A DNA stretch of 10,224 nucleotides from a virus (taxonomy: Duplodnaviria; Heunggongvirae; Uroviricota; Caudoviricetes), in the IMG/VR virus record IMGVR_UViG_2526164649_000017. The stretch is one strand, 5' to 3'. Below the pieces are notes generated by a model that was not told where the DNA came from, made no database searches, and saw only the letters and a list, made by a program, of their open reading frames with translations. Positions 1,043 to 2,092 of this stretch are shown one piece after another (within the stretch, counting starts at the first letter, position 1; every line of letters begins with the position of its first letter). Both the position numbers and the translations under genes were made by a program.

Positions 1043-2092
1043 GTGCGGGTATTACTTCGACCTGTTCTGGTTCCGGAACTCGGGCTGGTGGTCCTTAAGC
1101 CCGGTCGTGAATCCATGCCGGTATTCCACAATACCCGGTTACTGGTGGAGCCGGAACCGAAAAGCATGCGTAATCTGCCGTCCGGGGTCGTTCCTGCCGC
1201 TCGCCAGCCGCTGGTGGAAGACAAAACATTGCTGCCGTTTTTCAGTAACGCACGGGTGATTCGTGCTGCTGGTGGTGCTGGTGCATTGTCTGACTGGCTG
1301 TTGCGCCATATTAAATCCTGCCAGTGGCCACACGGCGATTATCATCACAGCGAAACCGTCATTCACCGTTATGGTACCGGCGCAATGGTGTTGTGCTGGC
1401 ACTGCGACAACCAGCTGCGTGACCAGACATCCGAATCACTCGAGCAACTTGCTCATCAAAACCTGTCAGCATGGATGATTGACGTCATCGGTCACGCAAT
1501 AAGCGGTACGCAGGAGCGTGAATTATCTCTAGCTGAATTATCCTGGTGGGCGGTCCGCAATCAGGTGGCGGACGCGCTACCGGAAGCGGTATTACGTCGT
1601 TCGCTGGGGTTGCGTGCGGAAAAAATCCGCTCAATGTACCGTGAAAGCGACATCGTACCGGGAGAGCAGACCGCCACCAGCATACTGAAACAGCGCACAA
1701 AAAATCTTGCGCCGCTGCCTCACGCCCACCAGCAACAGAACCCACCACAGGAAAAGACGGTGGTCAGCATTGCCGTTGATCCTGAGTCTCCGGAATCTTT
1801 CATGAAACGACCTAAACGTCGCCGCTGGGTTAACGAGAAATACAAACGCTGGGTGAAGACACAGCCGTGTGCGTGTTGTGGTAAGCCAGCCGACGATCCC
1901 CATCACCTGATTGGTCATGGTCAGGGCGGAATGGGGACAAAATCTCACGATATTTTCACGCTACCGCTGTGTCGGGAGCATCACAACGAGCTTCATGCGG
2001 ATCCTCTGGCGTTCGAAGAAAAGCATGGTTCTCAGGTTGATTTAATTTTTCGTTTTCTTGATCACGCCTTTGCAACTGGCGTGCTTGGGTAA
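1043..2092 (+). CDS. ydfU: DUF968-type prophage protein with C-terminal HNH (His-Me finger) nuclease-like motif
   Basis: 349-aa ORF, GTG start assumed from the ORF track (true start may be an internal Met). C-terminal CACCGKPADDPHHLIGHGQGG...SHD...LCREHHNELH fits an HNH signature. Synteny rem-ydfU as in Qin, from memory. Confidence 0.7.
   Translation: MRVLLRPVLVPELGLVVLKPGRESMPVFHNTRLLVEPEPKSMRNLPSGVVPAARQPLVEDKTLLPFFSNARVIRAAGGAGALSDWLLRHIKSCQWPHGDYHHSETVIHRYGTGAMVLCWHCDNQLRDQTSESLEQLAHQNLSAWMIDVIGHAISGTQERELSLAELSWWAVRNQVADALPEAVLRRSLGLRAEKIRSMYRESDIVPGEQTATSILKQRTKNLAPLPHAHQQQNPPQEKTVVSIAVDPESPESFMKRPKRRRWVNEKYKRWVKTQPCACCGKPADDPHHLIGHGQGGMGTKSHDIFTLPLCREHHNELHADPLAFEEKHGSQVDLIFRFLDHAFATGVLG

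Follow-up and report, generated by a model that had tools for sequence, protein, structure and literature searches.

A YdfU-type DUF968 protein from a Qin-type prophage remnant: an HNH/His-Me finger domain and a probable DNA endonuclease of the lambdoid nin region

Introduction

Published work going back at least to 2014-2017 assigns proteins of the DUF968 family, such as YdfU of the Escherichia coli K-12 Qin prophage, to the HNH nucleases, and PHROGs does so too. The subject of this report is a ydfU-like gene in a 10,224-nucleotide stretch of Caudoviricetes DNA, IMG/VR record IMGVR_UViG_2526164649_000017, referred to below as the window. On balance its product is probably a YdfU-type phage DNA endonuclease, and probably a nickase, belonging to the lambdoid nin region. 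Jablonska et al. 2017 (PMC5714182) placed DUF968 together with DUF1364 in group 7 of the His-Me finger nucleases, naming YdfU and YbcO, and reported RusA, Q and antirepressor genes as neighbors, proposing a role in recombination. Nuclease function had been predicted for YbcO by Kaur and Subramanian 2016 (PMC4999995), and Curtis et al. 2014 (PMC4118853) described Gram-positive DUF968 proteins as fusions in which an Orf-like domain is joined to a zinc-finger HNH motif.

A related system with experimental data is Gp16 of staphylococcal phage ΦNM1, described by Xu et al. 2026 (PMC12817073) as a NinB-like N-terminal domain followed by an HNH domain with the elements C145-x2-C148 and C181-R-E-H184. 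Gp16 introduces nicks into plasmid DNA, and RecA, to which it binds, stimulates it (PMC12817073). Its toxicity is abolished by the substitutions C148A, C181A and H184A, the second of which also abolishes cleavage, is partly relieved by H185A and H189A, and is not relieved by H157A (PMC12817073). To this background the present analysis adds a residue map between the window protein and Gp16, phage P1 Ref as the nearest fold, a second, probably degenerate HNH-like zinc module, and a quantified gene context.

Results

Family membership and domain layout

The gene and the regions of its product are as follows.

1043..2092, + strand: ydfU-like gene, GTG start, 349 amino acids plus stop; matches DUF968, PHROG 96 and K-12 YdfU
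1043..1219, + strand: N-terminal segment, residues 1-59; two short strands and a helix, conserved LG-V-LKPG motif, AlphaFold2 predicted local distance difference test (pLDDT) 59-70
1220..1612, + strand: predicted N-terminal zinc module, residues 60-190; helices, beta hairpin (105-110/113-118), helix 119-125, helical bundle
1613..1825, + strand: flexible linker, residues 191-261; length varies, pLDDT below 50 at residues 226-246
1826..2089, + strand: C-terminal HNH/His-Me finger domain, residues 262-349; beta1 285-288, beta2 306-309, helix 311-319, then two helices

A sequence-only reading of the window had called the product a ydfU-like DUF968 protein, and family searches agree. Pfam model DUF968 (PF06147) matches with E 2.6e-76 (255.9 bits against a cut-off of 27.8), residues 160-346 spanning the whole 171-position model, and the same profile matches all 35 of 35 aligned relatives. 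PHROG 96, labeled "HNH endonuclease" by its curators, matches over the full length with E 3.9e-174. The window protein is 86% identical to YdfU (b1560) over all 349 residues, with every motif residue kept. Over its 5.9-kb phage part the window shares 98.6% identity with a Qin-type prophage of E. coli 1EC213 and 96.7% with phage mEp460, and the related loci recovered in a scan of viral contigs were all near-identical E. coli prophages. Among 1.84 billion representative proteins, searched exhaustively, there are 3068 relatives at E <= 0.001.

Profile searches thus place the motif in an HNH family, not in a non-nuclease zinc-ribbon family, and the neighboring families can be delimited. The window protein does not belong to HNHc_6 (PF16784), the family of Orf-HNH fusions such as Gp16, which is marked by a NinB/Orf-like N-terminal domain; its weak match to that model, over the motif, falls at 22.3 bits below the cut-off of 26.6. 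It has no match to the canonical Pfam HNH model (PF01844) at E <= 0.01, none to Pfam RecA_dep_nuc, the P1 Ref type, and none in NCBIfam or among the PADLOC defense models. Searches of PDB sequences, both with the single protein and with a full-length family profile, gave only chance C2H2 zinc-finger matches, with E about 1. The Pfam YbcO/DUF1364 model matches K-12 YbcO and not the window protein; the YbcO sequence scores 88% probability and E 2.8e-6 against the C-terminal domain profile in hhalign. YbcO/DUF1364 is therefore a sister family, related at the profile level only, and not a family to which YdfU belongs. Among the database relatives, P0037, P0038, P0041 (607 amino acids) and P0061 (447 amino acids) carry DUF968 fused with a Q antiterminator domain or RusA; these fusions may be real, or may be frameshift or gene-calling artefacts of adjacent genes.

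The C-terminal HNH motif

Residues 262-349 almost certainly form an HNH/His-Me finger domain in which the catalytic and zinc-binding residues are all present. An HNH-type motif had been read at bases 1860-2005, which encode residues 273-321, TQPCACCGKPADDPHHLIGHGQGGMGTKSHDIFTLPLCREHHNELHADP, and every element listed for it is present: C276-A-C-C279-G, D285-P-H287-H288-L, G293-Q-G-G296 (with G295 too), S301-H-D303 and L309-C310-R-E-H313-H314-x3-H318. The positions to which we assign roles, all on the + strand, are these.

1868-1870 (C276), 1877-1879 (C279), 1970-1972 (C310) and 1979-1981 (H313), + strand: predicted zinc ligands, from conservation, joint loss and the Gp16 match
1904-1906 (H288), + strand: predicted general base, from conservation and the Gp16 alignment
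1901-1903 (H287), 1982-1984 (H314) and 1994-1996 (H318), + strand: predicted catalytic-metal ligands, from conservation and, for H314 and H318, the Gp16 alignment
1949-1951 (D303), + strand: invariant aspartate (73 of 74 relatives)

Conservation was counted over the C-terminal domains of 74 non-redundant relatives (<=80% identical). The histidines are kept in nearly all of them (H287 in 71, H288 in 70, H314 in 68 and H318 in 69), as are K300 (69), D303 (73) and P308 (72). The zinc ligands vary more, with C276 in 72, C279 in 54 and C310 in 56, while position 313 is His in 29 and Cys in 24. The complete pattern C-C-HH-D-C-[H/C]-H-H occurs in 49 of the 74, and by these counts conservation of the motif exceeds chance. 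About 18 relatives have jointly lost C279, C310 and the position-313 ligand, which identifies the three positions as parts of one structural zinc site; all four histidines and D303 are retained in these same proteins, and the histidines are therefore under selection independent of zinc. The opposite decay is seen in a few relatives, for example P0209, P0226 and P0245, which have lost the histidines, retain the cysteines, and are probably inactive. For the last zinc knuckle the family has the canonical CxxCH-x3-H as its consensus; the window copy, like staphylococcal Gp16, has His for the second Cys.

The structural Asn that gives HNH its middle letter has no counterpart here, since none of the positions between the two strands holds a conserved Asn across the 74 relatives. 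The invariant D303 lies in that stretch instead, as it does in Gp16 and YbcO. We regard this as a motif variant, of a kind common in the His-Me finger superfamily. The other hallmarks are in place: H288 stands at the end of strand 285-288 and aligns with Gp16 H157 and with the YbcO histidine, and helix 311-319 carries H314 and H318 after the second zinc knuckle.

Correspondence with Gp16

The Gp16 sequence taken from the phage record matches HNHc_6 with E 4.9e-117 and also scores above threshold for DUF968. Residues 273-328 of the window protein align with it at 39% identity over 59 amino acids (E 1e-9), pairing C276 with C145, C279 with C148, H288 with H157, C310 with C181, H313 with H184, H314 with H185, and H318 with H189. 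The CxxCGKP element, the catalytic His and CREHHNE-H are common to both proteins. The gp16 gene likewise lies in an early region, with rusA in the same phage. By this alignment the window motif is homologous to the experimentally studied nuclease center of Gp16.

Predicted fold

From an alignment of 44 sequences AlphaFold2 gave a model with a mean pLDDT of 79.8, confident at residues 60-190 and 260-349. In its C-terminal domain, strand 285-288 ends in H287-H288, strand 306-309 follows, and helix 311-319 carries H313, H314 and H318. This predicted layout is the beta-beta-alpha-metal core that defines the superfamily fold, and the model thereby bears out what the sequence-only reading had expected of it. 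The His-Me finger (HNH) arrangement which that reading proposed is supported jointly by PHROG 96, by conservation, by the predicted core and by homology to Gp16.

The best fold match to the C-terminal domain is 3plw_A, phage P1 Ref, with a score of 7.8, a root-mean-square deviation (rmsd) of 3.1 Å over 79 amino acids, and 24% identity. IscB (9liq_A, score 6.2), Cap5 (7rwk_B, 5.6) and YbcO (3g27_A, 5.5; rmsd 2.2 Å over 69 amino acids) follow, with McrA, GVE2 HNH, Gme HNH and Cas9 HNH at lower scores. Foldseek returned non-significant matches only (best E 0.45), again to HNH proteins. P1 Ref (PDB 3plw) is an HNH endonuclease that depends on RecA; unlike YdfU, it lacks the second zinc module, and the two proteins share no sequence-family match. 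DLP12 YbcO (DUF1364, PDB 3g27) differs in being a 96-residue single domain, in having AH for HH and D for H318, and in being accompanied by a separate Orf-family gene, ybcN.

The N-terminal zinc module

A second CxxC in mid-protein, read as CWHC, is present as C118-W-H-C121 (1394-1405), although the family consensus is C-W-H-[H/C] and not CxxC. Its surroundings suggest a further metal site.

1319-1321 (C93), 1343-1345 (H101), 1394-1396 (C118) and 1403-1405 (C121), + strand: predicted ligands of a second zinc site, from conservation
1406-1408 (D122), + strand: the residue next after C121

Among 63 non-redundant relatives, C93 is present in 63 and C118 in 62; position 101 is His in 43 and Cys in 18, position 121 is His in 39 and Cys in 23, and D122 is found in 55. 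Position 102 is His in only 31. The pattern points to C93, H101, C118 and C121 as the four ligands of a second metal site. Both C118 and position 121 sit where the beta hairpin (105-110/113-118) meets helix 119-125, and residues 60-190 are probably a degenerate, non-catalytic HNH-like domain. A four-way alignment pairs C93 with C279, H102 with H288, C118 with C310, C121 with H313, and D122 with H314. Profiles of the N-terminal and C-terminal domains are collinear in hhalign but not significantly similar (E 0.045, 1% probability), and BLASTP of the N-terminal domain against the Gp16 HNH is not significant either (E 0.09). An internal duplication is suggested, tentatively, by the fold search and not by sequence. 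The linker that follows ends in a conserved basic motif, VDPExP..FM.RPK..RW, in which, in the family alignments, K258 is invariant and P257 conserved.

Gene context

The genes around the ydfU-like gene are as follows.

72..227, + strand: hok
445..696: rem-like open reading frame (ORF)
763..1041, + strand: 92-residue ORF, PHROG 1212, no Pfam match
2105..2461, + strand: rusA, Holliday junction resolvase, 13 nt 3' of the ydfU-like gene; Pfam RusA E 1.8e-17
2476..3297, + strand: Q antiterminator, Pfam Antiterm E 9.5e-55; end of the delayed-early (nin) region

The gene had been described as lying between a Hok toxin and RusA. Both neighbors are there, but rem and the 92-residue ORF intervene after hok. 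GGAGG stands directly 5' of the GTG start, and translational coupling to the 92-residue ORF is suggested because the upstream stop codon ends 1 nt before that start. A homolog of this ORF lies directly 5' of DUF968 in near-identical Escherichia/Shigella loci and in two Klebsiella loci; in several other genera it lies about 360-410 nt upstream of DUF968, with RusA in between.

K-12 Qin has the same hokD-rem-ydfU-Q neighborhood, and the window copy differs from it in having rusA between ydfU and Q. We surveyed 80 loci by tblastn, each species being represented by a single genome; their proteins share 45-95% identity with that of the window. The Q gene follows within about 100 nt 3' of DUF968 in 62 of the 80, and in 55 a same-strand RusA gene lies no more than 2 kb away, directly adjacent in 16; the arrangement seen most often is RusA, Rha/ANT antirepressor, DUF968, Q. 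RusA is likely a functional partner of YdfU. In more distant prophages of Vibrio, Aliidiomarina, Serratia and Klebsiella, whose proteins are 25-38% identical, the place of the DUF968 gene is always between the replication genes and Q, and wherever the terminase region can be seen, terminase is adjoined by a small canonical HNH gene of its own.

NinB/YbcN, NinG/Rap and YbcO were found by tblastn in none of the 80 DUF968 loci. For comparison, the DLP12 order is ybcN-ninE-ybcO-rusA-quuD, that of lambda is NinB ... NinG-NinH-NinI-Q, and ΦNM1 has its NinB-HNH fusion together with a rusA. Lambda NinG/Rap, a His-Me finger junction endonuclease, and NinB/Orf resemble YdfU in their nin-region place just before Q and, if YdfU acts as proposed, in a role in recombination; they differ from it in domain architecture and have no detectable sequence similarity to it. 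The absence of NinG and NinB is consistent with alternative modules, which may be functionally equivalent, and we infer that different phages carry interchangeable versions of one recombination toolkit.

Discussion

YdfU is likely to be an active metal-dependent DNA nickase or endonuclease. In the mechanism we propose, C276, C279, C310 and H313 would hold a structural zinc in residues 262-349, H288 at the end of strand beta1 would serve as general base, and H287, H314 and H318 would bind the catalytic divalent metal, with D303 standing in structurally for the N of HNH. A flexible linker, about 70 residues long and with its terminal basic RPK..RW, would join this domain to the N-terminal module, which has its own zinc site and an HNH-like fold; because it lacks a conserved catalytic histidine, that module probably binds DNA or a partner protein and does not cut. 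The gene would share the delayed-early transcript with rusA and Q. The most likely job of the enzyme would be to nick or cut recombination or replication intermediates in phage or host DNA, possibly only in the RecA-bound state, as with P1 Ref and PhiNM1 Gp16, after which RusA would resolve the resulting junctions. We put forward only tentatively that YdfU acts on such intermediates with RusA, possibly in a RecA-dependent manner like Ref and Gp16.

A more elaborate picture, which we hold to be speculative and rather unlikely, would make YdfU a tandem His-Me finger protein. Its N-terminal HNH duplicate, with zinc site kept and catalytic His gone, would target the active C-terminal nickase. The whole would be the lambdoid counterpart of P1 Ref and PhiNM1 Gp16, replacing NinB/Orf plus NinG/Rap (or YbcN plus YbcO) in Qin-type phages and passing its products to RusA.

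The same chemistry could be turned on a different target, and to that extent a host-directed effector overlaps the endonuclease reading. Such an early nuclease would damage or arrest the host chromosome for lytic growth, or act in defense, in anti-defense or against competing phages. Gp16, with the same motif, reportedly halts replication of the host and, through RecA, condenses its nucleoid, both effects being RecA-mediated, and P1 Ref, the best structural match, is described (PMC4713147) as raising RecA-dependent DNA damage in lysogens; the window also has the toxin-type genes hok and rem beside the ydfU-like gene. Yet the PADLOC models contain nothing that matches, the place in the nin region is fixed across genera, unlike that of typical mobile defense cargo, and intact prophage copies in thousands of E. 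coli genomes imply low toxicity when repressed. We judge a host effector unlikely. Packaging, as by a terminase-associated HNH protein of the HK97 gp74 type, and selfish homing are both common roles of phage HNH proteins (general knowledge; PMC12817073, introduction), but intact relatives have their separate small canonical HNH gene right before the terminase genes, with DUF968 kilobases upstream, before Q and the lysis genes, and a constant gene position with divergence in step with hosts (25-55% identity across genera) is unlike the sporadic insertion of a homing endonuclease. Gene position led us to reject both roles, which are very improbable.

YdfU might instead be a zinc-finger protein without catalysis, such as a regulator or recombination mediator, whose task is to bind DNA or a partner protein and for which the HNH fold is a scaffold only. 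The N-terminal HNH-like module has apparently already become such a scaffold, histidines are missing in some relatives, one relative is annotated as a transcriptional regulator, and Gp16 H157A retained its phenotype. In a purely structural finger, however, one would expect the opposite of what is seen, namely four histidines and D303 in at least 92% of non-redundant relatives, lineages without the zinc cysteines included, and in vitro nicking of DNA is reported for the homologous Gp16. We consider the silent scaffold improbable and retain the endonuclease reading.

The gene is among the most widespread E. coli prophage genes of unknown function: thousands of sequences fall into clusters of near-identical proteins, and at least part of the 5.9-kb query, which includes ydfU, matched in 4953 of 5426 complete genomes. 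Its RefSeq product name is still "DUF968 domain-containing protein", and a better name is the practical gain in annotation. With a complete HNH active site a y-gene becomes an enzyme that can be tested directly, and homology to the Gp16 nickase, the P1 Ref fold match and the fixed place near RusA and Q make the test specific. If the RecA-linked reading is true, YdfU would be a third interchangeable recombination-nuclease module in lambdoid phages, beside Rap and YbcO.

Other features of the window

Near hok, no Sok antisense RNA was found at the Rfam gathering threshold; a 55-residue ORF (53..220, + strand) overlaps hok at the position expected for mok. The Q antiterminator (273 amino acids) shows, besides Antiterm, a weak match to the DnaJ-type CXXCXGXG zinc-finger repeat, below threshold at 28.4 bits against 32.7.

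Insertion sequences occupy the right part of the window. Copies of IS600 at 5896-7126 and 7724-8955 are inverted with respect to each other, complementary at 100% over a 1056-nt stretch and at 99% over one of 176 nt, and the 597 nt between them hold a fragment of a major facilitator superfamily (MFS) transporter gene encoding 171 amino acids (7208..7723, - strand). The left copy truncates the end of a P21-type holin gene (5651..5875), and similarity to intact prophages ends at 5857. IS2 (orfA 8978..9361, orfB 9319..10224) follows directly after the second IS600. The insertion sequences run to the end of the window, and the prophage is therefore a remnant without lysis and structural genes.

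Two tRNA genes lie 3' of Q, at 3441-3516 and 3618-3694. One has anticodon CAT and the other is tRNA-Arg (TCT); ARAGORN assigns the CAT tRNA to Met, and the equivalent gene in a related prophage is tRNA-Ile in RefSeq. The small RNA family STnc100 has a strong Rfam match at 4391-4580 (+ strand; 132 bits against a threshold of 47), and beside it lies a 111-residue ORF (4606-4941, - strand) annotated in related genomes as anti-adapter protein IraM.
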